Shown piece after piece: positions 5,894 through 47,334 of a stretch of 64,000 nt of DNA. The DNA lies in assembly GCA_963705505.1 (NCBI GenBank), contig CAVPJU010000003.1, positions 160,001 through 224,000 of the forward strand. The letters run 5' to 3'. Both the position numbers and the translations under genes were made by a program. The stretch comes from an uncultured bacterium. Lineage in GTDB: Bacteria; Desulfobacterota_D; UBA1144; Nemesobacterales; UBA2774. Under the pieces are notes generated by a model. That model was not told the origin of the DNA and did not search any database. It was given only the letters and a program-made list of their open reading frames with translations. How positions within the stretch are numbered: position 1 is the first letter of the stretch; every line of letters begins with the position of its first letter.

Positions 5894-6436
5894 TCAGGAC
5901 CGCGTGAGGACGTTTCTCACTCTCTCAAGCTGGGTCTTTATACTACCATCGAACACTTTATCTTCAACCTTTGTAATTATTCCGCCGATTATTCCCGGAT
6001 CGACCTTTGACGTAACCTCGATGTCCTGTCCGATCGCCTTGGTCAATGCGCTTTTTATCCTCGCGAGATCGGATTCCGAAGGCTCCGTCGCCATAATGAC
6101 TTCCGCCCTCAGTCTGCCCGAGGCTTTCCTCAGCTTCTGAACGACCGTCTGCTCGGATTTTACGAGCGATTTAACCTTATCGAGCTCGATCGCGAGCGTC
6201 AGGAAATTGACGGTCAGCTTATCGTAGCCCTTCCTCGCCCCGATATCGTCCACGATCCCCTTCCTTTCCTGAAAATCGAAAGTCGAGCTCCAGAGTATGT
6301 TCCTCACCTCTTCCGTACCGGAGAGTAATTTAAAAAAATCCTCGAGGTCCGAAGTCACACGGTCGAGCTTTCCTTCTTCCCTCGCGCTCTCTATGAGCGC
6401 CTCCGTAAGGTCTCTCAGTGTTGCGATTGATGCCAT
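5894..6436 (-). CDS. atpH: ATP synthase delta subunit
   Basis: C-terminal VDPGIIGG...VFDGSIKTQL; immediately upstream of atpA. Confidence 0.93.
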   Translation of the reverse strand: MASIATLRDLTEALIESAREEGKLDRVTSDLEDFFKLLSGTEEVRNILWSSTFDFQERKGIVDDIGARKGYDKLTVNFLTLAIELDKVKSLVKSEQTVVQKLRKASGRLRAEVIMATEPSESDLARIKSALTKAIGQDIEVTSKVDPGIIGGIITKVEDKVFDGSIKTQLERVRNVLTRS

Positions 6437-6969
6437 TTTTCTTCCTCTATATTTTTGGTGAATTCCTCGACGAACCTTTCCTTATCGGAATCGCCCAGGC
6501 TCCGCCTGATTATCGTTTCCGCGTTCCCGAGCGCCAGGTTTACGACTTCAGACTGAATCTCGCGCTTGGCGCGTTCCGTCTGGAGCGCTATCGTCTCCCT
6601 CGCCTCCTTTCTTATAATCTCGGAAGCCGATTCGGCCTGCTTCAAGAGCTCGCTCCTCTCGGACTCTCCCTGCTTACGGAGCGTATCTTTCAGGGAATTA
6701 ATCTCCGTCTCGATCGCCTGAAGCTTCCTGGCAAATTCCTCGTACTTGGACTTCGCCTCCCCGATCGTCTTCTGAGCCACATCGATCTCGTGCCCGATCG
6801 TGCCGCGTCTTTCCACGAGGAAATTCTTTATCGGGGTCTTAAGGAAATACACGAGCACGCCTAGGAGAATTATCAGGTTGACGGTGTGCTCCATTACGAA
6901 CCGCCAGTTAAACGCCTCGGGCTCCGAGGCGGCTGTGAGGAGAAGATTGATTATTCCGTATTCCGTCAT
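6415..6969 (-). CDS. atpF: Fo ATP synthase subunit b
   Basis: One N-terminal TM segment followed by a long charged coiled coil; operon position. Confidence 0.88.
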   Translation of the reverse strand: MTEYGIINLLLTAASEPEAFNWRFVMEHTVNLIILLGVLVYFLKTPIKNFLVERRGTIGHEIDVAQKTIGEAKSKYEEFARKLQAIETEINSLKDTLRKQGESERSELLKQAESASEIIRKEARETIALQTERAKREIQSEVVNLALGNAETIIRRSLGDSDKERFVEEFTKNIEEEKWHQSQH

Positions 6970-7478
6970 ACACCGGCCTCCCTGCCCAAGATCCTGGACG
7001 CAATTTCCTTCGACAGCATCTGAACGTCGCCCTTAAGCTTCTCTTTTATCACTTCCGACTCCGACTCCAGCTTCTTTTTCGCTTCGTCCAGGAGTCCCGC
7101 TGTCTCCTCCCTGGTTTTCGAAATAATTCCGCTTGCGGCGGCCTCGGCCTCGCGGACTATTTTATTCCGCTCCTCCTGGGCCTGAGCCCTGGCGTCATTA
7201 AGCTTCGCTTCGTATTCGAGAATTATCTCCTTAACCTTCTCTTCGAGCTCTTTGGCTTCCCCGATCGCCCCTTTCGTGAGCTTCTCGCGCCTGTCGATAA
7301 GCTCCATGAAGGGTTTGAAAACGAGCGTGTTCAGAATGAATATTGCGGCGATAAATATTACTATCTGGATGATTACGGTTTTGTTAACGCTCAGCAGGTC
7401 TTCGGCTGCGAAGGCTTGAGACGCGGATATGAGCAGTAACATCAAAGAGACCGCAGAGACAAATTTCTTTTGTTTCAT
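6966..7478 (-). CDS. atpF: Fo ATP synthase subunit b'
   Basis: IIQIVIF...LNTLVFKP...R then coiled coil; second b-type gene, as in two-b-subunit operons. Confidence 0.85.
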   Translation of the reverse strand: MKQKKFVSAVSLMLLLISASQAFAAEDLLSVNKTVIIQIVIFIAAIFILNTLVFKPFMELIDRREKLTKGAIGEAKELEEKVKEIILEYEAKLNDARAQAQEERNKIVREAEAAASGIISKTREETAGLLDEAKKKLESESEVIKEKLKGDVQMLSKEIASRILGREAGV

Positions 7479-7514
7479 GATTCCGATATCTCCTTTACGT
7501 GTGTGTGGCGCAGG

Positions 7515-7922
7515 CTACACCGTCTTCGTATCTCCCGCAAAAGCGATTTTGAGGAGAGGGGGAGCAATAAAAGCAGTCAGCATTACCATAACCGTTCCAG
7601 CAGAAAAAAGCTCCGAATTGAATACGCAGCGACCAAGACCTGTTTGCGAGGAAATATGCCCTGCTTTTCCCCGGGGAATCGCCCCGGACCCGCCGGCGGC
7701 TTTATTTACGCCATACTGAACTGAAACCCCGCCGTTAACAAATTTACCCACTGCAGCGGCAATGAAAAGTACCCCTGAAGCTATCAGTACGGGGATAATT
7801 TTAATGACAACGGGATTTAACACGCCTGAATCCGCCGCCCTACCCATAATCGAGAGTATGTATATGAGTGCGAATGCAAAAAAGAACTTTTCTATGGTGT
7901 TATGGTTTCCTTCTAAACTCAT
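7515..7922 (-). pseudogene. Remnant of a CPA2-family cation/H+ antiporter (internally deleted, degenerate)
   Basis: Only 135 aa; AAAVGKFV and AIPRGKAG...ELFSAGTVMVMLTAFIAPPLLK resemble the last helices of CPA2 antiporters (GK motif, PRGE here PRGK). Confidence 0.6.
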
Positions 7923-7967
7923 TTATGGGCTTAATTCCTTAAGGGCAGAAAATTAAAAAAACGAAAG

Positions 7968-7996
7968 TATTTAACATGAAATCATAGGAGTGTCAA
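7968..7996 (-). promoter_or_regulatory. Candidate sigma70 promoter upstream of the antiporter remnant and atp operon
   Basis: Minus strand TTGACA-N17-TAAATA with TG upstream of an imperfect -10. Confidence 0.4.
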
Positions 7997-8132
7997 ACAA
8001 TTTAACCGCACATACACAATCCGGCAGAGAATCAGCTCTCACTTTACCGTTGTCCGAAACTTATTAATATCCCCGCAGGGGACAATGAGGATGAGAAAAC
8101 GCGGACCGTACGAAAAGTCCGTGCCCCCCGGC

Positions 8133-9092
8133 TTAAGCTATACCCTTTTCCTTATTAAATTTATCGAGCTCTATATCGTACTCGGTATAAATCCCGAGGG
8201 AATGGAGGAATTCATTTGCCTCTTCCAGGCTCTTTGCCTTGGATACGGAGCGTGAAAGGCCCGACAGCTTTTCATAGAGCACGCCGGCAGAGAAGTAATA
8301 TGTGACAGTGGATGACATGGAGAGGCTCACCTGTCTCCTCCCGCTCCTTATGCTCGTATCGGAGAACTCCCCCTTTGCATAGAGCGTCGGCATACGGCTT
8401 GCCTCGGTAGGAACTACGGAGATCAGTTTTTCGAGGAGTCCTAGCGCCTCTTTCGTAATCCCCCAGCTGCCGAGGAGCGCCCCTTCCCTCGCAAGTATGG
8501 CCATCGACCTCTCGAGCTCCTCATGAGTGAGCTCCCCGTCGCTCCCGAACCCGAAGAGTCCCATCACGGTCGGAATCCTCTTTTCAATAATTGCGAACGC
8601 AGCGGTCATTATGGAGTCGGCGAGGGGGCTCATAAGGCCGGGCTCGTTCCCGAGCGCGAGCAAATCCCCTCCGACGTCTATGCCGACTATCAAATCCGCG
8701 CCCAGTTCATGCGCAGCATGGAGTATCCCTTCCGCGACGGCCTCGGGGCCCGGGTGTATGTCCACCAAAAGCGTTTCGACCCCCAGAACCTCGGCGACGC
8801 CCGATTCGGCGAACCTTACTCCGGTGCTTGTGACGGTGTCCTTATTGGCGAACCAGACGACTTCGTTCAGCTTACGGGCGTTTCTTACCTCGTCGAACTT
8901 CCGGGGGCCGGGCATGGGGTCGATGACGGACCTCTCCCAGGAGAGACCGCCGAAAACGCATTCGACGCCGAACATTCCCAGCAGGTCGGCAGTGGGTATA
9001 GTACCTACGATGTCCCCGCCGCCGCCGATGCCGATGAGTATGGCTTTATTCGATTTCGAGATTATATGTTTAAGTGACAGGTTCCCTGACAA
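8133..9092 (-). CDS. DUF1152-family protein
   Basis: GIGGGGDI, IDVGGD, SPLAD and GSDGEL motifs. Confidence 0.75.
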   Translation of the reverse strand: MSGNLSLKHIISKSNKAILIGIGGGGDIVGTIPTADLLGMFGVECVFGGLSWERSVIDPMPGPRKFDEVRNARKLNEVVWFANKDTVTSTGVRFAESGVAEVLGVETLLVDIHPGPEAVAEGILHAAHELGADLIVGIDVGGDLLALGNEPGLMSPLADSIMTAAFAIIEKRIPTVMGLFGFGSDGELTHEELERSMAILAREGALLGSWGITKEALGLLEKLISVVPTEASRMPTLYAKGEFSDTSIRSGRRQVSLSMSSTVTYYFSAGVLYEKLSGLSRSVSKAKSLEEANEFLHSLGIYTEYDIELDKFNKEKGIA

Positions 9093-9198
9093 GCTCCCGC
9101 TCCAATTTCATTTATATCGGAATCCGCGCAATATAATCTACTGAAAGATGGGCAACTTTCAATCAATTTGTGTTGTAAGGGAATCAGACCGCGGGTGC

Positions 9199-9348
9199 CT
9201 ATGAGGGATTTACGACCCGGGCTCTTCGAGAAGTATAAAAAGGACGTTGTCGCTGAAAGCGGGGGATTTGGTCAGCCCCAGGTTCGGCCTTCGCACAGGC
9301 CATTAATACCGCAAAAGATGTAAATAGGACCGAAAACAGCTTTTTCAT
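9199..9348 (-). CDS. Small putative lipoprotein (49 aa) or lipoprotein gene remnant
   Basis: Hand-translated MKKLFSVLFTSFAVLMAC-AKAEPG...; lipobox-like LMAC; GGGGGAGG just upstream of ATG. Confidence 0.4.
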   Translation of the reverse strand: MKKLFSVLFTSFAVLMACAKAEPGADQIPRFQRQRPFYTSRRARVVNPS

Positions 9349-9610
9349 GGCCTCCCCCACCTTGATCCCGCTTAATTTCTGATACGCCTGTTAGCTTCAG
9401 ACGAAATATGAATGAAATTGGATTTATATATTTGGCCGGATATAGCAGAGCCTTCCGACTCTGCTCGTTGGCTCTCGGATTATGTATTCAGGCTGATAGA
9501 TTCATGTTTCGATAAACTTGGGATTGGATCGAGGCCGGAAACTGAAATTATTTTAGACAGAGCTCCGCCCTCTAAAAAGATTTCGTTCAACTTCCGTTGC
9601 TATGATATTT

Positions 9611-9877
9611 TTATTCGGCGAACCGGATACCGAGCCTGACCTGCGTTATCGCCTGGTTGACAAGCTCTAAAGCCTGAACCCTGTGCCCGCCCTTATCGGG
9701 GGACGATACTTCCAGGTTGATCCGAGCCGCATGCAGATTACCGAGCGCCTGCTCCATGTTCGGCTGATAACCGGGCTGGGCATTCGCTTCCCTGAACATA
9801 TTGAATGTCCCCATAAGGACCGCGGCAAAGAGAACGCCCGCTAAAAACGGCAGTGAAACTTTTATTATCCTCGACAT
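9611..9877 (-). CDS. Small secreted helical protein of unknown function
   Basis: Signal peptide ending ANA-Q; QPNMEQAL...DKGGHRVQALELV; AGGAG SD. Confidence 0.75.
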   Translation of the reverse strand: MSRIIKVSLPFLAGVLFAAVLMGTFNMFREANAQPGYQPNMEQALGNLHAARINLEVSSPDKGGHRVQALELVNQAITQVRLGIRFAE

Positions 9878-9972
9878 GACGACTCTCCTTATTGAAATGG
9901 AATTTATAGAAATAATAAAGCAGTTGATTAATTACCGCAAGTCGAATTCACTGACCGGAGACTGCACAAACA

Positions 9973-11691
9973 TTACCGCTTGACCTTGTACCCCGCCTTC
10001 TCTCTGTCCCAGGTATCTTTGGTGATCCCCATCTCACGCAGCTTATTCTTCTGAACCCTTTCCGTCCCCGTTTTGGGCAGTGTAGCTTCAAACCTCACGA
10101 ATCTCGGGAGCATGAAGTGAGGCATCCTGGGCTCGAGATATTCCATGAGACCGTGCGGCTCGACTTTCTTGCCCTTCTTGAGGACAACGAAGATCATGAC
10201 CTCGTCCTCGGCGTACCTCCCGCCCTCCGCCTTAATGCCTATTACACCGCACTCCTCGACTTCGGGGTGGGAGCTCACTATCTTCTCGACCTCGAACGAG
10301 CTTATATTCTCGCCCCTCCTCCTGATATAGTCCTTCACCCTGTCCACGAAATATATATACCCTTCCTTGTCCATCATTCCCGCGTCCCCCGTATGGAACC
10401 AGAAGTTCCTGAAATCCTGAACGGTTTTCTCGGGCATCTTGTTGTAGAAGTGGAGCATTATATTGGGTGTTCTAGGGCGGACTATAATCTCGCCCACGTG
10501 ACCCCTCGGGACCTCCTCGTCCGTCTCCGGGTCAGAGATCTTGATCTCATACCCGGGCGCTTCCTTGCCGCACGAGCCCACCCTGAAAGGCTCGCCGGGC
10601 CTCATCCACGTGCACTGCCCGATCTCCGTAAGCCCGTACCCTTCCATGAACCTGATATTAAAGCGCTCCATGAATTTCTCTATTATGTCGTGAGGCGCCG
10701 GGGAGCCCAGAACGAGCTTTGCCCTGTGCTCCTTCTCCTCGGGCACCGGGGGGGTATTCCACATGAAATAGGCCATAGTACCGACTATGTTGAATTTGGT
10801 CACTCCGTGGTCCTTGATCCATTTCCAGAACTGGCTCGCCGAGTACTTCTCCTCGACGACCACCTTCGCCCCCTTTATGAGCGCGGGGTATACCGACATC
10901 ACCATCGCGTTCGAATGATATAGCGGCAGACAGGTAAAGCAGACGTCTTTGGGTCCCACATCCATGATCTCGGCGTAGTTCCTAGCGCTCGAGTAATCGG
11001 CAGCGCAGGGCCTCACCACCCCTTTTGACCTGCCGGTCGTCCCCGATGTGTACATGAGACGGGCGTAATCCATGAAGGTAACTTCGACACCGGGGTCCGT
11101 GCTCTTCCGGGAAGTTATGAACCCGGCATATGAGATCATGCTCTTAAAATTGAACCCGTGTTTCTCGAATTTATCGCTGCCGCTCCTCGTCCATACTATC
11201 ACATGCTCGAGCTGGGGCAGGTACTTCGCGATGGGAGGCATTCTGTCGAGATATTCCTCCGCTATGAACAGGACCTTTGAATCGGAGCTGTCCAGTATGT
11301 ACTGGAGGAAGTCCATTTTATACGCTGTATTTATGGGGACCATGACGGCGCCGATGGTCAATATGCCGAACCACGTGATTACGTAGTCATCCGAATTAGG
11401 CATATAGACCGCAACTTTCTCACCTTTCTCTATGCCGAGATTGAGGAGCCCGTTTCCGATCTTGTTTGCATACCGGCTTGTTTTAAAAAAGCTCCAGGGC
11501 TTCCTGTAACCGAACTGGAGAAAGGGTTTTTTACCCAGCTTCTTTGCCTGCGCTTTGAGAATCTTGGGAAGCACCCAGTTGCTTTTATCCTGACCCACAT
11601 ACCACTCCACATCGAACTTCCCGTTCTCCCTCTTGTACGTAATCGTGTGCATCAGGTCGCGGCCTTTTTTCCGCTTGAGTTTTGCTGCCAT
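9973..11691 (-). CDS. Acyl-CoA synthetase (CaiC-like AMP-binding enzyme)
   Basis: YTSGTTGRSKG, GYGLTE, WFHTGD, RRRGENISSFEVE; likely start MAAKLK. Confidence 0.9.
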   Translation of the reverse strand: MAAKLKRKKGRDLMHTITYKRENGKFDVEWYVGQDKSNWVLPKILKAQAKKLGKKPFLQFGYRKPWSFFKTSRYANKIGNGLLNLGIEKGEKVAVYMPNSDDYVITWFGILTIGAVMVPINTAYKMDFLQYILDSSDSKVLFIAEEYLDRMPPIAKYLPQLEHVIVWTRSGSDKFEKHGFNFKSMISYAGFITSRKSTDPGVEVTFMDYARLMYTSGTTGRSKGVVRPCAADYSSARNYAEIMDVGPKDVCFTCLPLYHSNAMVMSVYPALIKGAKVVVEEKYSASQFWKWIKDHGVTKFNIVGTMAYFMWNTPPVPEEKEHRAKLVLGSPAPHDIIEKFMERFNIRFMEGYGLTEIGQCTWMRPGEPFRVGSCGKEAPGYEIKISDPETDEEVPRGHVGEIIVRPRTPNIMLHFYNKMPEKTVQDFRNFWFHTGDAGMMDKEGYIYFVDRVKDYIRRRGENISSFEVEKIVSSHPEVEECGVIGIKAEGGRYAEDEVMIFVVLKKGKKVEPHGLMEYLEPRMPHFMLPRFVRFEATLPKTGTERVQKNKLREMGITKDTWDREKAGYKVKR

Positions 11692-11899
11692 TTTTATGTC
11701 CCCTCTCGAGTGCTCTCGAATAATTGATCGCACAAAATTTTAACAGAAACCGATATAAAAAGCCCGCTTATCGATTTCATTTTCTACTTTATTTTTTTAT
11801 GGGGAAAAGTCAAGCTTGTGGAGGCCCTCGCTCGATAACAGTCGACGCCTGAGAAATAATCCGGCGTCGCCGGGCAATCCAGGGTGTTCTCAGAATTCT

Positions 11900-12670
11900 C
11901 TATGAATCCGCACTGTCGGATCCGGACTCCGTCTCTTCGCCTGCGGGCTTCTTTTTCCCGAACATCCACGCCACCAGGATACCGAGCTCATAAAATACCA
12001 GTATGGGGATGAACATCATCATCATCGACAGGGCGTCGGTCGTCGGGGTCAGGACCGCGGCTGCGACGGCGCTCACCAGGATCGCGTACTTCCTTTGTTT
12101 TCTCAGCCATGCGCTGGTCACGATACCGATCTTGGCTAATACAAAGATCACGAGCGGGAACTCGAATATAAGACCGAAGCCCAGAATCAGAGCCATAAAG
12201 AATGAAAGGGCTTCACTGATAGACGGGAACGCCTTTACGTACTCGGACGAATATTCTTTGAGAAGAAATTCGAAAGCCGGAGGGGCCGCGACGTAATAGC
12301 AGAACGATGCGCCGAAGATGAAGAACAATGTCCCGAAGAAAATGAACGGAATGGCTATCTGCTTTTCATGCTTGTAAAGTCCCGGGGCAACGAATTTCCA
12401 GGCCTGATACAGGATAAACGGCACGGCGGCAAACAGCGCCGCAAAAAAAGAAACTTTAAGATAAGTCATGAACCCCTCTGCGGGCATCGTAAATATAAGG
12501 GAACTGCCCTTGGGGAGGTTCGTTATTATAGGGCGCATCAGGAATTCAAAAAGCCGACCGGAAAAGGCGTAAGCCGGTATAAAGCAGACGAGAACGGCAA
12601 GGAGCGACCAGAGTATCCTGCGCCTCAATTCCCCCAGGTGCTCGAGGAACGGCATTTTGGATTCATTCAT
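11900..12670 (-). CDS. tatC: Twin-arginine translocase subunit TatC
   Basis: EHLGELRRR, FVAPGLY, FEFP and LTPTTD motifs; multi-TM. Confidence 0.97.
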   Translation of the reverse strand: MNESKMPFLEHLGELRRRILWSLLAVLVCFIPAYAFSGRLFEFLMRPIITNLPKGSSLIFTMPAEGFMTYLKVSFFAALFAAVPFILYQAWKFVAPGLYKHEKQIAIPFIFFGTLFFIFGASFCYYVAAPPAFEFLLKEYSSEYVKAFPSISEALSFFMALILGFGLIFEFPLVIFVLAKIGIVTSAWLRKQRKYAILVSAVAAAVLTPTTDALSMMMMFIPILVFYELGILVAWMFGKKKPAGEETESGSDSADS

Positions 12671-37263: not shown

Positions 37264-37440
37264 GCTCACACGAACAGCCCGGTCGTAAAAATATACCCCG
37301 ATTAAAACGGTTCTCAATGTTTTGATACCCGAATTATAGATATCCGCCTCAAAAGACCGTATCGGAGCGCGTAAGTCCATTGTTTTTAGGCGGCGTGTGT
37401 TGTAATATGAGTTTCTCTGATGGCGCAAGGAGGCTCTCAA

Positions 37441-38424
37441 ATGGCTACACTGGTTACAGGGGCTACGGGTTTCTTGGGCTCCCACATCGCAAGGAAGCTC
37501 GCCGAGAGGGGAGACAAGGTAAGGATACTCCTCAGAAAAACCAGCAACACTATAAATATAGACAACATAAACGCCGAGAGGGTTTACGGCGATGTAACCG
37601 ATATAGACTCCATCAGGAAAGCCCTCGAGGGCTGCGACACACTCTACCATACGGCGGGGGTCGTATCGTTCAAGCAGGCCGATTATAAAAAGATGGATGA
37701 TATAAACGTAAAAGGCACCAATAACGTATTTACGGCCGCGATGGAAGCCGGTGTGAAAAAAGCCGTATATACGAGCAGCGTGGCGGCGATCGGGCTTAAA
37801 CCGGGGAGGGAGCCGGCTGACGAAGAGACACCGTTTGACCCCGCAAGCACGGATATCCGGTACATAAAATCCAAATACTACGCCGAGCAGGAAGCTCTTA
37901 AATTTTTCGAGAAGGGCCTTCCGCTGGTGATCGTTAACCCGTCGATCGTGATAGGGGCGGGAGATGTTTACGTCTCGACCTCGGGGATAATTCTCTGGTA
38001 CTGCAAGAGGAGGCTCCCCGGCTACACGGACGGAGGCATAAACCTTGTGGACGCCGAGGACGTGGCCCGGGGACACCTGTTGGCGGCCGAGAAAGGGAGA
38101 CTGGGGGAGCGCTACATACTGAGCAACCGGAATATAACCATAAAAGAGCTGTTCGAAGTGCTCGAGAAGGTCACGGGGATTCCGAGGCCTAAAATGAAGA
38201 TACCCTACACTCTCGCTTACATAGGCGCGTTTATCGCTGAGCGCATATTCGGCATATCCGCGCCCAACTATGTGGCAATGGACATAGACTCAATAAAGGG
38301 GTCAAAGCACTACTGGTATTTCGATAATTCAAAGGCGGTCAGGGAACTCGGCTTCTCTCCGAGGCCGCTTGAAGAAACGATAGAAAGCACAGTAAAGTGG
38401 TTCAAGGAAAACGGCTACCTCTGA
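37441..38424 (+). CDS. Extended SDR, NAD-dependent epimerase / dihydroflavonol-reductase-like (HpnA-like)
   Basis: TGATGFLG, YTSS, YIKSK (YxxxK), GERYIL; AGGAGG SD before ATG 37441. Confidence 0.9.
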   Translation: MATLVTGATGFLGSHIARKLAERGDKVRILLRKTSNTINIDNINAERVYGDVTDIDSIRKALEGCDTLYHTAGVVSFKQADYKKMDDINVKGTNNVFTAAMEAGVKKAVYTSSVAAIGLKPGREPADEETPFDPASTDIRYIKSKYYAEQEALKFFEKGLPLVIVNPSIVIGAGDVYVSTSGIILWYCKRRLPGYTDGGINLVDAEDVARGHLLAAEKGRLGERYILSNRNITIKELFEVLEKVTGIPRPKMKIPYTLAYIGAFIAERIFGISAPNYVAMDIDSIKGSKHYWYFDNSKAVRELGFSPRPLEETIESTVKWFKENGYL

Positions 38425-39550: not shown

Positions 39551-39902
39551 ACCCGCTCGCAACAGCCCGTCAGTTAAAATATATTCATATACAACTATCC
39601 AGTCCGCTCATCCGCGTGTAACACTTCTTAATAATCGTCGATATGCCCGGCCTGAAGTAAAGTCTTCTTTTTCCACGACTTGTAATATTCGGGTAAAATA
39701 TTTGCGGGGTTATTAACTGATTTAATTAGATATAATCAGCACCGGATAACTGGTTACGGCACGTACTTAATAAAGTACGATTGAGGTGAGCAGGATTATA
39801 TCTCATTATAGTTAATTATATTTTTCAATATTCTTCCCCCGGTTTTATATAACCTATTGAAACAAAAAACAAATTGCACTAAAATTGCAAAAAGGGGTAG
39901 TA

Positions 39903-40000
39903 TCCTTCCGAAATGGCAAACTATCCGAAAGGGTAGGACGCAAAGCCTCAAGCCTAAGGACTTGCCAAGTGCTGTCTATGGCGGTTGGGTTGCCGAAGAT
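39903..40000 (+). promoter_or_regulatory. Cyclic di-GMP-I (GEMM) riboswitch aptamer
   Basis: GGCAAAC-TATCC-GAAA-GGGTA-GGACGCAAAG (P2 with GAAA tetraloop); P3 carries a canonical 11-nt receptor (CCTAAG 39953-39958, TATGG 39977-39981); ends GGGTTGCCGAA. Confidence 0.93.
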
Positions 40001-40114
40001 GAGTTACTTGCAATAATTCTAATATTCGAGGATAATTATAAATGAGCTGTAAACGATAACCTTAGCTATATTAAAGTATATTGCTAAAATTTGCTTTCAG
40101 GGAGGGGAACGATA

Positions 40115-42874
40115 ATGGGGATAATAATCAGGGAGAAGAAAGACCGGAGAGGACACGAAAGAATCCCCGTAAATTTTATCGTTTATTCCAGAAACACGGG
40201 AAAGGTGATGGGACAGGCAAGGGACCTTTCATCGAGAGGACTCTTTATACAAACGGAAGATGAATACGAACCGGGGACTAAACTCCTCCTCGAGTGCGAT
40301 CTCTCGGGCGCGCATCCGGTTAAAGCTTACTGCGAGGTCAGGAGATTCGAATCGAACGGAACCGGAGCGCACGGAATCGGGGTCGAATTCATAAACCTCT
40401 ACGAATCCGACAGGACCAAGCTGCTGAACTATATAGAGAGCAGTAAGAACAAACTCAATTCCGACGACTATTATTTATCCGATTTTAATGACATACCCGA
40501 CGATGACCTGTTTAAAAAGGCCGAGGTCTTCTGGCAATACAAACTGGACATGGAATCGAAGGGATACATAAGGTACAGAAGACCCCTTGCGTCGCCCTCC
40601 GCGCATAAAGTGATCATCGACGACGATTTCACGGGAAAGAAAAAAGAGATGATCATGATGGGGAGCAACAACTACCTTGGCCTCACTTCCCATCCGAAGG
40701 TAATCAAAATTGCAAAAGAAAAAATCGACAAATACGGCGCCGGAGCAGGGTCCGTCCCGCTCCTTGCCGGGACTTTCGACATACACAGACAGCTCGAGAT
40801 AAAACTCGCTGAGCTAAAAGGGTGTGAGGACGCGATCATATTCCCGAGCGGCTACGTAACTAATCTCGGATGCATACAGGCCCTCGTTAAGAACGAGGAC
40901 CTGGCCGTTATAGACAGGCTCGCCCACGCCAGCATCATCGACGGCTGTATGCTGTCCTCGGGGACGTTCAGGACGTTCAAGCATTCAGACGTCGACAGTC
41001 TCGAAAACGTGCTGAAGAGGAACCGTGACAACTTTAAAGGCAAGCTTGTAATCATAGACGGCGTCTATAGTATGGACGGGGACATAGCTCCCCTTCGTCA
41101 GATCACGGAGACCGCTCACAGGTACGGCGCCAAGATAATGGTCGATGAGGCTCACGCCACCGGTGTCATAGGGGATAAGGGAAGAGGAACGCCGAGCCAC
41201 TTCAAAATGAAGCCGGGCGAGGTAGATATAGTCATGGGGACACTGAGCAAATCCCTGGGCGGCATTGGCGGATTCATAGCCTCGACGAAAGAGGTCGTAA
41301 ACTATCTCAGGTACTATACGAGATCCTTCTTCTTTTCATCCAATTTCCCCCCTTCTGTCGCGGCCTCCGTGCTCGCCGCAATCGAGGTGATGGAGACGGA
41401 CAACTCGCTTCAGAAAAGCCTCTGGAGCAATATCAAATATATGAAGGAAAACCTGAAATCGATGGGATTTAAAACGGAACAGACAGAGTCCGCGATAATT
41501 CCCGTCATTATAGGGGACGAGCTCACTCAGAAAAAGATGAGCAGGAGATTCCACGAAGCCGGCATATATGTAAACGCGATCCCCCACCCCGCAGTGCCCA
41601 AAGGGCAGGAAAGGTTCAGGTTCAGCCTGATGGCTACTCACACGCGCGAGGACCTGGACAGGACGCTCGAAGTAGTCGAAAGCCTGGGAAGGGAATTCGG
41701 AATTATAGACAAGCCGGTTTCATTAAGCGTCCCCGAGGGTCAAAAATACACCGTGAAAGAGGTCTCCTCGAAGGAAGACATCGAAAATTCAGTCAGGTTC
41801 TCATGGAAAGTGTACAAGGACTATCCGGCATGGGTGCCCTATTTCCTGATAAAGGACCACGTAAAACTGATTTCGAACGATTACTTTTACTTCAGAAAGG
41901 TTTACGGAAAGAGGATCGTCGTCGAGGAGAACGGGGAGATAATCGGCACGGTAAGCGCATTCATAGATAATTATTACAACCGCTACCACGACACGAAAGT
42001 CGGATTCCTCGGGTTTTTCGAAGCCCTCCCGGACAAAGAAGAAGCAATAAGCCTTCTGCTGGATAGAGCCGAGGAATTTCTCGTAAGAGAGGGATGTACG
42101 GAACTGCAAGGGCCCGTGAACGGAATTTTCGGAATCTTCGGGGGCGGCCTGCTTTCGAGCAACTACGGCAAAATACCGTCATTCCTGCAGGTGTACACCC
42201 AGCCCTACTACCATGACTACTTCACGAATGCGGGATTCAGTCCGGTCAAAAAACTGCTCCATTACACCATAGACCTCAAATCACCCGACAACGTGAACGC
42301 GATAATGAAATACTCGCGGGAATCGTTGCCGCCGGATATAAAAATCAGGCAGATCAACAAATCCGATTGGGACAGAGAGGTACGGAGCGTCGTCAGAATT
42401 TTCAATGATTCCCTCGCTCATCTCTGGGGCAATGTTCCCTTCGATGCAGACGAATTCATAGAGTTCGCGGATGAGTTCAAGAGTCTGATCGTTCCCGACT
42501 ACTGGCTTATTGCAGAATCCGGCGGCGAAGCGATAGGCTTCATAGGGGGATTCCCGCAATACGCTTCCGTATTCAGGGGTTTAAACGGAGAGATCAAGCC
42601 ACACAAGCTGGTAACGCTGCCCCTCCAGTTGAGAGGCATCAAGGAAGGCGTTTTAATGATCATGGGTCTGCTGGACGAATATAAGGGAATGAGAATCGGC
42701 ACTATTCTCCTCAGCAAAGTCTGTGAGGCGATGATCGGGAACGGGTATGAAAAGGTGGCCGGCACATGGGTTCTGGAAGACAACTTAGGCTCGCGGCGTA
42801 TCGTGGAGAACCTGGGCGGAAAGGTCGACCTGCACTGGGAGATGTATTCAAAAATTCCGGCAATGAGTGAATAA
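40115..42874 (+). CDS. PilZ / PLP alpha-oxoamine synthase (SPT/AONS-like) / tandem-GNAT (bCerS-like) fusion protein
   Basis: PilZ RGHER and DLSSRG; AOS motifs SNNYLGL, HASIIDG, YSMDGD, DEAH, GTLSKS; GNAT part W.P, GFLGFFE, GPVN, PYY, IFND..WG.VP, WVLEDN; GGAGG SD before ATG 40115. Confidence 0.88.
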   Translation: MGIIIREKKDRRGHERIPVNFIVYSRNTGKVMGQARDLSSRGLFIQTEDEYEPGTKLLLECDLSGAHPVKAYCEVRRFESNGTGAHGIGVEFINLYESDRTKLLNYIESSKNKLNSDDYYLSDFNDIPDDDLFKKAEVFWQYKLDMESKGYIRYRRPLASPSAHKVIIDDDFTGKKKEMIMMGSNNYLGLTSHPKVIKIAKEKIDKYGAGAGSVPLLAGTFDIHRQLEIKLAELKGCEDAIIFPSGYVTNLGCIQALVKNEDLAVIDRLAHASIIDGCMLSSGTFRTFKHSDVDSLENVLKRNRDNFKGKLVIIDGVYSMDGDIAPLRQITETAHRYGAKIMVDEAHATGVIGDKGRGTPSHFKMKPGEVDIVMGTLSKSLGGIGGFIASTKEVVNYLRYYTRSFFFSSNFPPSVAASVLAAIEVMETDNSLQKSLWSNIKYMKENLKSMGFKTEQTESAIIPVIIGDELTQKKMSRRFHEAGIYVNAIPHPAVPKGQERFRFSLMATHTREDLDRTLEVVESLGREFGIIDKPVSLSVPEGQKYTVKEVSSKEDIENSVRFSWKVYKDYPAWVPYFLIKDHVKLISNDYFYFRKVYGKRIVVEENGEIIGTVSAFIDNYYNRYHDTKVGFLGFFEALPDKEEAISLLLDRAEEFLVREGCTELQGPVNGIFGIFGGGLLSSNYGKIPSFLQVYTQPYYHDYFTNAGFSPVKKLLHYTIDLKSPDNVNAIMKYSRESLPPDIKIRQINKSDWDREVRSVVRIFNDSLAHLWGNVPFDADEFIEFADEFKSLIVPDYWLIAESGGEAIGFIGGFPQYASVFRGLNGEIKPHKLVTLPLQLRGIKEGVLMIMGLLDEYKGMRIGTILLSKVCEAMIGNGYEKVAGTWVLEDNLGSRRIVENLGGKVDLHWEMYSKIPAMSE

Positions 42875-42878
42875 ACAA

Positions 42879-45452
42879 ATGATTGACAGACAATTGTCCA
42901 TGTCGGAAGGGAACGGAACGAACATCCAGAAATCGATATTCAGTATTGTTGCGTTCGTTCTGCTCCTCTTCTGCATAGGGAATTTCCTATTAGGTCTCAA
43001 CAGGGTGAACAAACCCTACCCCGGATTTTTCTTCTATAAAAACCTCGTCATAACAGATATATCGCCGAAAACAGTCAACGGCGAGATGCTGAAAAGGTTT
43101 AAGGATAAATTAAAGGCAGTAAACGGTATACCTGTCAGAATCCCCGATGACGTATTTGAAATAATCGACAAAATCCCCGTGGGATCCCAAGTGGAATACA
43201 CGATACAGAGAAACAGTGATACATTCAGCGTTACCATCCCGATAGAGAAATTAGCACTAAAAGAGATGCTTCTCCTATTCGGAATCATATATGTGATAGG
43301 CATCGTGTTCCTTATCATCGGCGTGATGGTTCTTCAAAAGAAGCCTTACCTGAAGGCCAGTAAGGCGTTTTTCCTCTTCTGTGCTTCGATATGCGTATGG
43401 TTTGTCGGATCGTTCGACGCACAGGCTGTCTATTTATTCGACCAGCTGAGCTTCTTTTCCTGGATCTTCTGCCCGCTATTCGGAATATATCTGATGTTTA
43501 TTTTCCCGTCCGATACCAAACTGAAGGGAATGACGCACAATTTGGTGTCGATATTGTTTTTATTTATTTCAGCTATGCTTTTCGTTCTTCAGTTCATTTT
43601 CTTCTACAACTATGAAATATGGAAATACGTTAATACCGTAAGCTGGATTTACGTAGTCCTTAGCACCGTGATTTTCCCCATCTCTTCGCTCATGACCTAC
43701 ATGAATCCGTCGTCGGCGCTTGAAAAACAACGCGCGCAGATAATATTACTCGGCTGCATTTTCGGCTTGCTTGCCCCGGCTTCGGTGGTAGGCTGCATCA
43801 CGGTCTTTAAAATAAGCATGCCGTATAACCTGATGGCTCTCCCCGTGATAATTTTTCCCGTGTCCATCGCATACGCCATAGTAAAGCATAAGCTCTTCGA
43901 CATAGACGTAATCATAGAAAAGGCACTCACGTACGGACTCCTCACCGGAGCCGTGGGAGGCATCTTCGCACTCACGGTCCTGGGCTTCAACGTCGCCTTC
44001 GCCAAATACGGCGGATGGAAGAACCCGGCTTTCTTCGTTATCCTTAGCGGATTCCTAGTCATCGCCCTCAACCCCCTCAAGAACCGGATACAGGACCTAG
44101 TCGACCTGACATTTTTCAGAAAGAAGTACGATTACAGGGGGACGGTGGAGGAAGTGAGCTACGCCATGACGTCGCTCTTAAGCCTCGACAAGATAGTCGA
44201 TAAGATCATCGACATAGTCGAGAGCACCATGTTTTCAACTCCTGTCTCCGTATCCATATACAATCAGGACCTCGGAGCCTATGAGCAGTATTTGAAAGAA
44301 GGGGATATCCAAAGCCCGCCCGATATGACCGTCACTGAGGACAACATTCTGGTACAGCACCTTAATTATCACGGAAAGGAAATCTTCAGGGAAGACCTGA
44401 TTGCCGATGAGAGGTATATCCGCAACTCTCAGAAGCTTATGAGCGAGTTCGAGAGGTTCAATGCATCGCTTTTCATACCGCTCTTTTTCAAGAAGCAGCT
44501 GATAGGGTTCATCGCGCTCGGAGAAAAAAAGTCCGGGCTCTCCTACACGTCGCGCGACGTGATGCTGCTTAAGCTTCTTGCGAACCAGAGCGCGATAGCG
44601 ATCGAAAACGCCCTCGCATTCAAACTCGTCGAAGATTATGCGAAGAAGCTCGAAAAAACCAATAAGGAGCTCAAAGACGCGCAGACACAGCTCGTGCACG
44701 CGGAAAAGATGTCAGCGATCGGGCAGCTTGCCGCGGGCGTGGCCCACGAGATAAGGAACCCCTTAAACATAATCGAGGGGGCAAGGTACTACATATCCAC
44801 TTATATGATGGATAAAGAAAACACGGAGGTCGTCGGGGAATACCTCGATTATATAAAACACGAGGTGGACAGGACAAACAGGCTGATAGACAGCCTGCTC
44901 AAGTTCTCAAAAGCCGAACCGCCCTATTTCGAGAGTGTCAATATCAACAACGTACTCGAGAACGTCGTAATACTCGTACGGAAGCAGCTATCGGACAACA
45001 ATATAAATCTTGCTGTGAGGTTCGACGAAAACATCCCTCAGATCATGGCGGACCCGAACCAGCTCTGGCAGGTATTCATCAATATTATATTAAACGCCAT
45101 ACAGGCGATGCCAAAGGGCGGGGACATGACCATAGAGACTTCGACCAGGTGGGACGAATTCGCGAGCAGTGATAACCACCACATATACATACATTTCAAG
45201 GACACAGGCGTGGGAATAGACAAAAAAGATATCACGAAGATCTTCGATCCGTTTTTTACGAAAAAGGATATGGGAACCGGACTCGGACTCTCAATCGCCT
45301 ATAAGATTATAGAAAAACACCAAGGCAGAATAATAGTGGAGAGTGAGAAAGGGGCCGGGACAATATTTACGATTGAACTTCCATCAAATAACTATAATAT
45401 TACTGCGGGAGAGGAAGATGCCGAACACAAGGAAACGGGTGCTGGTTGTTGA
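42879..45452 (+). CDS. Membrane sensor histidine kinase (PDZ-like, multi-TM, GAF, HisKA, HATPase)
   Basis: DKLKAVNGIPV...GSQVEYTIQR (PDZ-like); many TM segments ending YAIVKHKLFD; GAF (LANQSAIAIEN); AHEIRNPL; N/G1/F/G2 boxes. Confidence 0.9.
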   Translation: MIDRQLSMSEGNGTNIQKSIFSIVAFVLLLFCIGNFLLGLNRVNKPYPGFFFYKNLVITDISPKTVNGEMLKRFKDKLKAVNGIPVRIPDDVFEIIDKIPVGSQVEYTIQRNSDTFSVTIPIEKLALKEMLLLFGIIYVIGIVFLIIGVMVLQKKPYLKASKAFFLFCASICVWFVGSFDAQAVYLFDQLSFFSWIFCPLFGIYLMFIFPSDTKLKGMTHNLVSILFLFISAMLFVLQFIFFYNYEIWKYVNTVSWIYVVLSTVIFPISSLMTYMNPSSALEKQRAQIILLGCIFGLLAPASVVGCITVFKISMPYNLMALPVIIFPVSIAYAIVKHKLFDIDVIIEKALTYGLLTGAVGGIFALTVLGFNVAFAKYGGWKNPAFFVILSGFLVIALNPLKNRIQDLVDLTFFRKKYDYRGTVEEVSYAMTSLLSLDKIVDKIIDIVESTMFSTPVSVSIYNQDLGAYEQYLKEGDIQSPPDMTVTEDNILVQHLNYHGKEIFREDLIADERYIRNSQKLMSEFERFNASLFIPLFFKKQLIGFIALGEKKSGLSYTSRDVMLLKLLANQSAIAIENALAFKLVEDYAKKLEKTNKELKDAQTQLVHAEKMSAIGQLAAGVAHEIRNPLNIIEGARYYISTYMMDKENTEVVGEYLDYIKHEVDRTNRLIDSLLKFSKAEPPYFESVNINNVLENVVILVRKQLSDNNINLAVRFDENIPQIMADPNQLWQVFINIILNAIQAMPKGGDMTIETSTRWDEFASSDNHHIYIHFKDTGVGIDKKDITKIFDPFFTKKDMGTGLGLSIAYKIIEKHQGRIIVESEKGAGTIFTIELPSNNYNITAGEEDAEHKETGAGC

Positions 45453-47334
45453 CGACGAACAGCTCATACTCAAAATCATATCCGATATACTGACCAAGGA
45501 AGGATATGAGGTCATAGTCGCCAATAACTGCGAGAAGGCCGCAGAATACCTGAGGTCGTCTAATTTTAACGTGGTACTCTCGGATATAAAGATGCCCGTA
45601 AAAAGCGGCATAGACCTTCTTGAAGAAATCAAGAAGAAGGACCCAAATATCCCTGTCATCCTTATGACGGGTTTCGCCTCCCTCGAAACCGCCGTCGAGG
45701 CCGTCCAGAACGGAGCGTTCGATTATCTTATTAAACCGCTCGATTACGGCAAGCTCAAAAGCGTTATCGAACATGCCGCCGACAGGTACGAGCTCTACAG
45801 GGAGAACACGCGCCTGCTCAGCGATCTCAAAGAGCTGAACACCAACCTCGAGTTAAAGGTCAAAGAAAGGAACAGGCAGCTTGAGAACACCCTCAACAGC
45901 ACCATAGAAAGCATAATCACGACGGACAGGGACCTGACAATAGAGACTGCAAACCCGAAGTCTTCCGAAATATTCGGCAGGAACTGCGTAGGGGAGAAAC
46001 TGAGCCTTTTATTTCAAGGGATCAACTTCGATACAATAATTCCCAAAATCCTGAGTGATCCGTCGTATTCGACGAAACACGAAGTAAGGCACGACAATAA
46101 GTTCCTCGAAGTGACCCTTTCTCCTCTGATCGACTTCGAGACGAAAGAGATATTCGGAGTGATAGCCGCGACAGAAGATATAACGGAGAAGAAGAAACTC
46201 GAAGCTCAGCTCATACACTCCGCAAAGATGTCGGGCGTAGGCCAGCTGGCTGCGGGAGTCGCGCACGAATTCAACAACATTCTGTCGGGCATTATAGGCT
46301 ATACCAGCCTCGCGCTCACGAGACAGGACTTGGACAGCGCCAGGAAAGACCTGAAAGTCATCGAGAAGGCCTCGGACAGGGCGGTCGAAATAGTAAACAA
46401 GCTCCTTTCCTTCTCGAGGCAGAAAGGGGAGAAATTCCAGGTAGCGCAGATCGAGAGCGTCATAGACGACGCGCTCGGCCTGGTCGAACACACTTTCGAG
46501 ACCGAGGGCATAAGGATACTCAGGAGCTACGAGAAGGTCCCCGCTATAAGAATGAACCTGGGAGAGTTGCAGCAGGTTTTCCTCAATCTGGCGATAAATT
46601 CGAAACACGCCATGCCCCAGGGCGGCGCCATAGCCATCAGCACGAAGCTCGCCGGGAATTATGTAAGAATCGACTTCTCCGATACTGGAGTGGGCATCCC
46701 CCCTGAAAACCTGTCGAGGATATTCGAGCCGTTTTTTACGACAAAACTGAGCGAAGGCACAAAATCCGGCACGGGCCTCGGGCTATCGGTTATCTATGCG
46801 ATCATTGAAAGGCACGGCGGCCGCATCGATGTCTCAAGCGAGGTCAATAGAGGCACGACGTTCACGATCCTCCTCCCCAATATTCAGGCGGTTTCGAAGA
46901 CCCCGGAAGCGGAGCCGGCACAGAAAAGCCAGAACGGTAAAGTAATCGAGCTAAGGCGCAAAGGGAACGTCCTGATCGTCGACGACGAGGAATTCATCAG
47001 AGACATAGTGAGCGAATGCCTGTCGAGCACGGGGCACAATGTGATGACTGCAGGAAGCAGCGACCAGGCGATCGAGCTCATAAAAAAGAATCATTTCGAC
47101 ATCACGTTCCTTGATTTTTCCATGCCCAATAAAAGCGGCCTCGAGCTCCTCAGGGAAATAAAGGTCATAGACCCCAACTCCACAGTGGTCATTATCAGCT
47201 CAAGGCCCGAGGAGCAGCTCCCGGACGAGCTTTCGGACGAGGGTTCTTACAATATCATTAAGAAACCGTTCTCGGTGGACCAGATACAAAACGCGGTCTC
47301 CAGGGTTCTGGGGGCGGAGGCGATGAGCAGATAA
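45418..47334 (+). CDS. Cytoplasmic hybrid kinase REC-PAS-HisKA-HATPase-REC
   Basis: VDDE/SDIKMP/KP; PAS-like segment ending EDITEKK; AHEFNNIL; GTGLGL; C-terminal VDDE/LDFSMP/KP; overlaps the upstream kinase gene. Confidence 0.9.
   Translation: MPNTRKRVLVVDDEQLILKIISDILTKEGYEVIVANNCEKAAEYLRSSNFNVVLSDIKMPVKSGIDLLEEIKKKDPNIPVILMTGFASLETAVEAVQNGAFDYLIKPLDYGKLKSVIEHAADRYELYRENTRLLSDLKELNTNLELKVKERNRQLENTLNSTIESIITTDRDLTIETANPKSSEIFGRNCVGEKLSLLFQGINFDTIIPKILSDPSYSTKHEVRHDNKFLEVTLSPLIDFETKEIFGVIAATEDITEKKKLEAQLIHSAKMSGVGQLAAGVAHEFNNILSGIIGYTSLALTRQDLDSARKDLKVIEKASDRAVEIVNKLLSFSRQKGEKFQVAQIESVIDDALGLVEHTFETEGIRILRSYEKVPAIRMNLGELQQVFLNLAINSKHAMPQGGAIAISTKLAGNYVRIDFSDTGVGIPPENLSRIFEPFFTTKLSEGTKSGTGLGLSVIYAIIERHGGRIDVSSEVNRGTTFTILLPNIQAVSKTPEAEPAQKSQNGKVIELRRKGNVLIVDDEEFIRDIVSECLSSTGHNVMTAGSSDQAIELIKKNHFDITFLDFSMPNKSGLELLREIKVIDPNSTVVIISSRPEEQLPDELSDEGSYNIIKKPFSVDQIQNAVSRVLGAEAMSR

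Follow-up and report, generated by a model that had tools for sequence, protein, structure and literature searches.

A PilZ, alpha-oxoamine synthase and tandem-GNAT fusion behind a c-di-GMP riboswitch: a putative signal synthase exchanged between relatives together with the sensor of its neighbouring histidine kinase

This work concerns an operon in a 64,000-nucleotide stretch of DNA (positions 160,001 to 224,000 of contig CAVPJU010000003.1, assembly GCA_963705505.1; hereafter the window) from an uncultured bacterium of the GTDB lineage Desulfobacterota_D; UBA1144; Nemesobacterales; UBA2774. At its centre lies a gene encoding, in one chain, a PilZ domain, an alpha-oxoamine synthase (AOS) and a tandem-GNAT region homologous to the bacterial ceramide synthase bCerS; a cyclic di-GMP (c-di-GMP) riboswitch aptamer precedes the gene, and two histidine kinase genes, here termed HK1 and HK2, follow it. 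We consider it fairly probable that the operon specifies a synthase that is gated by c-di-GMP and makes an N-acylated amino ketone, a signal to be read by the adjacent kinase. Its features, in window positions, are the following.

39857–39885, + strand: sigma-70-like promoter match (10 of 12 positions; consensus match only), about 20 nt upstream of the aptamer
39905–39997, + strand: c-di-GMP-I (GEMM-I) riboswitch aptamer, G20-type (Rfam RF01051)
40008–40036, + strand: second promoter-like site, TTGCAA-17-GATAAT, conserved, between the aptamer and the start codon
40115–42874, + strand: PilZ–AOS–tandem GNAT fusion, putative signal synthase; single open reading frame (ORF), ATG at 40115, stop at 42874, 919 amino acids
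40142–40438, + strand: PilZ domain (PF07238) with RxxxR (R12, R16) and D37-x-S39-x-x-G42
40475–41707, + strand: AOS domain with intact pyridoxal phosphate (PLP) residues (from motifs, trees and NCBIfam scores)
41747–42853, + strand: tandem-GNAT domain, a divergent bCerS homologue whose C-terminal lobe differs between alleles (from alignment)
about 40230–43850, + strand: exchangeable allele block; its edges lie near codon 39 of the synthase and near codon 324 of HK1, where the sensor helices end (from sliding identity against genome G074 and discordant trees)
42879–45452, + strand: HK1, putative receptor, with one transmembrane (TM) segment, a PDZ-like domain, about seven TM segments, two further TM segments, GAF, HisKA (His at 623) and HATPase
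45418–47334, + strand: HK2, hybrid kinase REC-PAS-HisKA-HATPase-REC, putative phosphorelay partner (Pfam)

The initial annotation had described a single-chain enzyme with intact PilZ and AOS motifs and a tandem-GNAT region, and each of these elements was found where it had been placed. Pfam locates PilZ at residues 10–108 (53.5 bits versus a cut-off of 22.5), Aminotran_1_2 at residues 178–520 and Acetyltransf_1 in two stretches; the PilZ motifs are RRGHER (R12, R16) and DLSSRG at residue 37, the PLP residues of the AOS domain are H271, D344/H347 and K379, with the loop GSVPLLAGT at 212, and the GNAT region carries WVPY at 573, GFLGFFE at 630, GPVN at 666, QPYY at 696, IFND at 762 and WVLEDN at 885. 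RxxxR and D/NxSxxG define the c-di-GMP-binding PilZ motifs, and the synthase has both. All 27 aligned rows share R12, R16 and G42, and also H271, D344, H347 and K379. The AOS domain combines fold type I with the PLP His, Asp, His and Lys of its family. A crude motif scan returned RxxxR in 74 and D/NxSxxG in 69 of 79 homologues. Some alleles deviate at the PLP motifs, with GTLSHAL (His replacing Lys) in genome G004 and GSMSNVF in G023 (AOS domains of loci L037, L044; L052), which suggests that these copies may be inactive.

The fusion is real and not an assembly artefact, because about 40 of the 120 homologue clusters listed are full-length (882–954 amino acids; the named relatives are mostly metagenome-assembled genomes of Dadabacteria or 'Thermodesulfobacteriota') and because a contig from an independent run (X2 record 10) spans positions 39932–42504 unbroken, across both the PilZ–AOS and the AOS–GNAT junctions. 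Contigs of two runs end near 42483–42504, and one contig (414 of 920 letters) matches only from 43800 onward; these ends are compatible with allele boundaries, without proving them.

HK1 and HK2 follow the synthase in the same direction and nearly without gaps. The architecture of HK1 was pieced together from Pfam matches, Atlas look-alikes of PDZ and 7TM domains and a hydropathy scan, which gave 10 segments. Genes of the PilZ–AOS clade occur in 37 of the 120 genomes of the class, 27 of them with a GNAT domain (including one split, one frameshifted and some truncated at contig ends); in the other 10, no bCerS homologue was found. All 37, from six families, also have the HK1 sensor; a sensor match was obtained in 42 genomes, those beyond the 37 being three with orthologue-level or partial matches and two with a distant paralogue only. 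Among 20 fetched loci, HK1 comes after the AOS gene in 19 and HK2 after HK1 in 18, and the slot between AOS and HK1 is variably filled. A fused GNAT domain takes it at eight loci and a separate GNAT gene at one; an S-adenosylmethionine (SAM) methyltransferase occupies it at two loci, an NAD-dependent reductase at two others and a Zn dehydrogenase at one, and at five loci it holds no enzyme. The conserved core is PilZ–AOS plus the membrane kinase, and GNAT is one occupant of a variable slot.

In G074, a genome of the same genus as the query, aroC and HK2 are 93% and 94% identical to the query, but the AOS domain only 54%, the GNAT domain 42% and the sensor 28–43%. At the DNA level, identity is 48–61% over positions 40230–43850 (approximately), against 76–96% in the genes on either side; a control locus keeps 76–91% identity to the query across the synthase and kinase genes. 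On the right, HK1 identity to G074 rises from 27–42% to 87–97% near codon 321, and the divergent block ends at the sensor boundary in G074 as well as in G078; the left edge recurs in P0028, from another assembly, which shows 95% and 80% identity over residues 1–40 and then about 50% to the query. The trees of the AOS domain and the sensor (23 loci) and of the GNAT domain (15 of these loci) unite G074, G078, G008, G010 and G011 across two families, with FastTree support of 0.997, 1.0 and 1.0 for AOS, sensor and GNAT, whereas the trees of the cytoplasmic part of HK1 and of HK2 follow taxonomy and place G074 with the query. Thus, synthase and sensor exist as exchangeable alleles that are swapped between relatives as one block. 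As an argument for signalling this is circumstantial but strong, short of proof, since adjacent genes co-transfer anyway and the genomes, being kin, are not independent.

A finer pattern was seen in G075, G095 and G097, which belong to three genera and share private residues, eight in the C-lobe of the GNAT domain and five in the sensor (D180N, A181G, W195L, L200F and T255I), with none in the AOS domain, the GNAT N-lobe or the linker/GAF part. In a survey of 25 cross-genus pairs for such sharing, one pair shares 12 and 7 residues and the others at most 2. Most sensor sites track the genus (31 genus-diagnostic versus 5 allele-diagnostic sites). For these three genomes, site-specific matching appears to explain the distribution of sites better than a single long tract of hitch-hiking would.

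The leader of the synthase gene contains the RF01051 aptamer (78.8 bits versus a gathering threshold of 35; E 8e-14), 117 nt upstream of the synthase. It has a G at the specificity position G20, which we take to be the first G of GGCAAAC, a motif invariant in 7 of 7 aligned leaders. A c-di-GMP-I riboswitch lies upstream in 8 of 12 loci scanned; of the remaining four, one has no upstream DNA, one has no aptamer, and two are PilZ–AOS-only loci with a weaker aptamer after the AOS gene. According to the G20/A20 rule, aptamers of the G type respond to c-di-GMP and not to cyclic GMP-AMP (cGAMP) (PMC6140456). In the genome, which holds seven GEMM-like motifs by pattern match, three of three GGDEF domains read have the canonical Asp at the Hypr position, with a fourth GGDEF-like match on contig C2. 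We therefore favour c-di-GMP over cGAMP as the ligand and have set the latter aside. A promoter consensus search gave 14 sites versus 9.4 +/- 2.7 in shuffled sequences, and the TTGCAA of the downstream promoter-like site is invariant in 7 of 7 aligned leaders. No intrinsic terminator was found in the leader, whose predicted folding was not significantly structured (z -0.3).

As to other c-di-GMP elements, the six further GEMM-like motifs lie on contigs C3, C6, C8 and C10 of G000; several precede secreted-looking proteins, one of which resembles a lytic transglycosylase. At locus L048 (9288–11785) a CZB-GGDEF cyclase and a REC-HD-GYP phosphodiesterase are encoded upstream of the synthase (Pfam on L048 only), and ORFs similar to these are present in L038, L039 and partly in L036.

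The AOS domain had been annotated as SPT-like, i.e., resembling serine palmitoyltransferase (Spt), an assignment that did not hold up. In a fold search with a model of the whole synthase (predicted local distance difference test score, pLDDT, 72.8), in which the AOS domain took up all matches, the top hit was the S. multivorum Spt 8guh (Z 39.7, root-mean-square deviation 2.9, 358 residues aligned), tied with Kbl and HemA. The domain scores below the cut-off of every NCBIfam model for Spt, Kbl, BioF, HemA and CqsA: 344.6/500, 385.2/640 and 298.8/670 for the Spt models NF047599, NF047600 and NF047603; 396.8/426, 402.5/460 and 342.2/493 for TIGR00858, NF005394 and TIGR01822 (BioF/Kbl); and 201.9–204.3 versus 428 for the CqsA model NF005526. 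The Spt models recognize their controls (Caulobacter 680.9/500, Parabacteroides 683.8/640), yet their cut-offs are strict, because a bCerS-linked Ignavibacteriales gene also fails (478.7/640). Phylogeny was inferred with care from 34 of 80 rows (LG+G4, approximately unbiased (AU) test) and by a quick method from all 80, with Spt, BioF, Kbl and HemA among the families compared and 13 references taken from the 15 AOS-holding loci among 80 bCerS-relative loci (retrieved with a PilZ–bCerS fusion as query); CqsA and Lgs sequences were not part of these trees. Known Spt proteins and bCerS-linked Spt-like genes form a clade (support 100/99) that excludes the query AOS, which instead falls into a sister clade (96/93; 96/94) together with PilZ-, REC- and carrier-fused AOS proteins and apart from Kbl, BioF and HemA. 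The quick tree gave the same split between query and Spt, and the AU test rejects a clade of Dadabacteria AOS and Spt alone (p = 0.0197). By these trees, the AOS clade is sister to, and not within, Spt.

The substrate loop points in the same direction. Where Spt has Ser-Arg, the query has V214-P215, and all 15 rows of the Spt clade have G-S-R, which no Dadabacteria row shows; around V214 the loop differs among alleles and relatives. V214 aligns with V79 of ThAOS, a position that governs the choice of amino acid; Spt has Ser there, and Kbl has Val (PMC11906848). Wild-type ThAOS still takes serine (PMC11906848), so that serine is only disfavoured as a substrate. This bears out the earlier suggestion that the deviating loop may signify an amino acid other than serine; judged by V214, it is probably glycine or alanine. 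The other AOS of the genome is a true BioF, above its cut-off and adjoining bioB/bioA-like frames (judged by their N-termini only).

For the GNAT region, the bCerS-like motifs of the initial annotation proved a sound guide, since the domain can be aligned over its full length with bCerS of Caulobacter vibrioides (25% identity over 375 residues, E 1e-28). The Caulobacter spt, cerR and bcerS genes were located through primers in the supplement of PMC11087976; compared with the filter of E<=1e-30 used for bCerS in PMC11334938, the value of 1e-28 is close and not clearly past it, the database sizes being different. The domain is the sole bCerS homologue found in 26 of the 120 genomes. Against 132 free-standing relatives, 25 fused GNAT domains retain the majority of the structural Gly, Pro and aromatic residues, but all or nearly all have replaced seven polar residues (R77, N233, N/D278, N280, R311, E351 and R378 in Caulobacter numbering) that are kept in Caulobacter bCerS and most of the 132. 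A PDB sequence search with the region gave nothing meaningful, NCBIfam assigned no family either to it or to Caulobacter bCerS, Atlas returned only generic GNAT clusters, and its single-sequence fold was poor (pLDDT 39.7). No CerR is linked to the locus, the best match to Caulobacter CerR in the genome (93.6% complete) having an E value of 6e-14, and the genome revealed no Spt-clade gene and no clear CerR; clustering of bCerS with spt and cerR is not obligatory (PMC11334938). An OleD-like reductase is encoded elsewhere in the genome. The initial idea that two consecutive ceramide steps are fused thus stands as far as full-length bCerS homology is concerned, but not with respect to the AOS, which lies outside the Spt clade, the replaced family residues and the missing link to CerR. 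Two genes upstream of the synthase, at positions 37420–38424, lies an HpnA-like NAD-dependent epimerase/reductase gene (346 bits versus a cut-off of 368; weak CerR match, E 6e-8), which is syntenic and stays with aroC outside the exchanged block.

We propose the following mechanism. c-di-GMP would act on the mRNA through the riboswitch, whose aptamer is evident, and probably also on the enzyme through the PilZ domain, whose motifs predict binding. The AOS would condense acyl-coenzyme A (acyl-CoA) or acyl carrier protein-bound acyl groups with a small amino acid, of which Gly and Ala are more probable than Ser, to give an alpha-amino ketone. To judge from its homology, the bCerS-type GNAT domain would then N-acylate the amine, and a small N-acyl amino ketone resembling ceramide would result. 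Other genomes may leave the amino ketone unmodified or else methylate or reduce it. The product would be read by the membrane sensor of HK1, with phosphate passing through HK2 to an output. Alleles of synthase and sensor do move between lineages as a block, and if their specificities are matched, as we suppose, signal 'dialects' would result. We prefer the reading as a signal synthase because the sensor kinase always stays with the enzyme and its sensing half is exchanged with it.

Several observations weigh against this proposal. As judged from the alignments, several family residues are missing from the fused GNAT domains and the WxLExN motif from the deep allele; for the riboswitch no expression platform is apparent, and downstream of its aptamer there is a conserved promoter-like site. 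No DNA-binding regulator is encoded in the operon. Co-transfer of synthase and sensor could occur without selection for matching, since the genes are neighbours and one recombination tract between conserved anchors suffices. The partial rank correlations over the 23 loci (sensor with AOS given HK2, 0.71; sensor with HK2 given AOS, 0.28) speak for the proposal, but they are no valid statistical test because the genomes are kin. The fine-allele result rests on three genomes, whose shared residues could be ancestral. HK1 occurs without an AOS at three loci (G015, G030 and the second locus of G031), and G023 has a distant PilZ–AOS without a sensor match. Moreover, none of 27 distant sensor loci (30 of 71 loci read) carries AOS or bCerS in the flanking DNA retrieved, meaning that members of the sensor family are not as a rule linked to AOS genes.

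The alternative that survives best, although we regard it as unlikely, is that a fused Spt–bCerS makes a membrane ceramide (or 1-deoxy- or desoxymethyl-ceramide) on a c-di-GMP cue, the kinases monitoring envelope or lipid. It would account well for the full-length bCerS homology and for the presence of this domain as the only bCerS homologue found in the 26 genomes, and it could draw on the sister relationship to Spt (96/94), on the tied top fold match to S. multivorum Spt, on the reductases that occupy the slot at some loci and on the OleD-like enzyme. It is difficult to reconcile with an AOS outside the Spt clade and devoid of its G-S-R, with the ten genomes in which the AOS stands without a bCerS homologue and with the missing linkage and weak best match of CerR; nor would a structural lipid explain exchange together with a receptor domain. 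The two readings can overlap, namely in the case of a signal that is itself a ceramide-like lipid and is perceived inside the membrane.

Quite improbable, in our view, is that the kinases are unrelated passengers, that ordinary recombination at conserved anchors on either side swaps the block, and that the product is defensive or another secondary metabolite. Adjacency alone accounts for co-transfer, the sequence right after the sensor is 95–99% identical within the genus and thus a natural crossover point, and distant sensors lie in unrelated contexts; even so, mere passengers would hardly co-occur with the enzyme in 37 of 37 genomes from six families or keep their place despite turnover of the intervening gene, and the end of the divergent block at the sensor boundary in both G074 and G078 argues against this view as well. 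We also find it very doubtful that PilZ–AOS makes the active molecule with GNAT as a degenerate or purely regulatory or ligand-binding appendage. The seven replaced residues and the 10 GNAT-less genomes are what such an appendage would predict, but 27 genomes keep the entire domain, as part of the fusion or as a separate protein, it retains DEYKGMRIG, presumably the CoA-binding loop, and its C-lobe co-varies with sensor residues. That the AOS is a housekeeping BioF or Kbl fused by chance is hardly tenable, for although its best NCBIfam scores are to BioF/Kbl-related models and Val at the ThAOS V79 position is typical of Kbl, it remains below all cut-offs, and branches apart from Kbl, BioF and HemA, and the genome has a true BioF elsewhere.

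Among known systems, the Caulobacter ceramide pathway (Spt, bCerS and CerR encoded by CCNA_01220, 01212 and 01222; PMC11087976) resembles the locus in that an AOS and a bCerS-type tandem GNAT, homologous over its full length, are both cytoplasmic and consecutive in chemistry. The query differs in being a single chain with PilZ, in an AOS outside the Spt clade without Ser-Arg, in a GNAT domain that has lost the family polar residues and is dispensable in relatives, in the missing link to CerR, and in the attached riboswitch and kinases. CqsA/CqsS of Vibrio and LqsA/LqsS of Legionella likewise place an AOS beside a multi-helix membrane histidine kinase; there, a molecule derived from an amino ketone is read by the kinase, and single transmembrane residues set a specificity that matches the acyl preference of the synthase (PMC3376566, PMC3285556). 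For the query and its relatives, pairing and co-variation of synthase and sensor are seen at the level of sequence, and a response of HK1 to the product is predicted. Its AOS is no orthologue of CqsA (202 bits versus 428 for NF005526; 23% identity), the architecture of HK1 (PDZ-like, about seven TM segments, GAF) is another than that of CqsS/LqsS, and the query has tailoring enzymes and a proposed c-di-GMP gating at the RNA and protein levels. By the tests run, the query belongs to neither Spt nor CqsA. In the Lgs/TetR system of Bacteroides (bioRxiv 10.1101/2025.08.20.671311) an AOS gene adjoins a presumed receptor and a small molecule is released, but the receptor is a cytoplasmic TetR protein, and PilZ, GNAT and kinase are absent; an AOS–TetR pair of a Phocaeicola plasmid (L067), which may correspond to Lgs, falls into the same broad 46-row clade as the query. 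The staphylococcal agr locus, in which specificity groups are defined by a hypervariable block that covers the genes for synthesis and part of the gene for the receptor kinase (PMC10482373), is similar in this pattern of variation alone, its signal being a peptide and its proteins unrelated. Fusion of an AOS to a GNAT-fold domain has a counterpart in mycobacterial BioF2, a GNAT–AOS fusion in reverse order with a different GNAT family and without PilZ.

Other regulated forms were encountered, comprising PilZ–bCerS fusions, an AOS–bCerS fusion, REC–AOS proteins and, in further lineages of which one is labelled Spirochaetes, PilZ–AOS proteins (P0135, P0163, P0190, P0219, P0071, P0084/P0092/P0095 and P0086–P0118), P0071 being a PilZ–AOS–FemAB-like GNAT fusion; a linker LADF...DLF.K is common to several regulated AOS/bCerS forms. 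A neighbourhood search with the Spirochaete PilZ–AOS gave no true orthologue locus.

Variants of the kinase locus were also noted. L054 (G015; 5972–12612) contains aroC, a gene of the SAM-methyltransferase fold, a small opposite-strand gene, HK1 and HK2 but no AOS, possibly with a different synthase in the same slot. In L055 (G031:C40) and L056 (G030:C118) aroC is directly followed by HK1 with no synthase, which makes them candidate receptor-only loci. Distant homologues of the HK1 sensor lie beside an apolipoprotein N-acyltransferase-like gene in L191, L196, L198, L203 and L212 (Pfam on L191 only), some also beside a B12 radical-SAM gene. A secreted-looking protein of 550–680 amino acids adjoins the AOS in non-fused loci (L034:9845–11509, L035:7689–9488), and seven similar-sized ORFs, judged by size and N-terminus, are found in L036 and L038–L043; two of these secreted-looking proteins match TIGR04551 below its cut-off, and homologues occur elsewhere in the same genome. 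Such a protein could be an outer-membrane channel for the product.

In the literature covered (titles and abstract starts, with few subscription journals) we found no report of a PilZ–AOS fusion, of such a system in Dadabacteria or of c-di-GMP control of bacterial sphingolipid-type synthesis, although the published Spt tree data (PMC11334938) may already include these proteins. On balance, we are inclined to see in the locus a variant of AOS-based chemical signalling, in which the predicted double gating by c-di-GMP is unusual and natural alleles of synthase and sensor occur. More tentatively, and with some reservation on our part, it might represent a new class of cell-to-cell signalling with ceramide-like chemistry, comprising a c-di-GMP-activated synthase, a PDZ/7TM kinase as reader, cassette-swapped dialects older than the genera that carry them, and receptor-only 'listener' loci.

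For surveys that score sphingolipid producers by matches to Spt and bCerS, the locus calls for caution. Should the ceramide reading be true instead, a c-di-GMP link to sphingolipid-type synthesis would still remain. If the operon does make a signal, one more family would join the short list of amino-ketone signals, a bCerS-type enzyme would gain a role outside membrane building, and signal production would be directly under c-di-GMP at both the RNA and the enzyme level, with the natural allele pairs pointing to a lobe of the synthase and five residues of the sensor as likely determinants of specificity.

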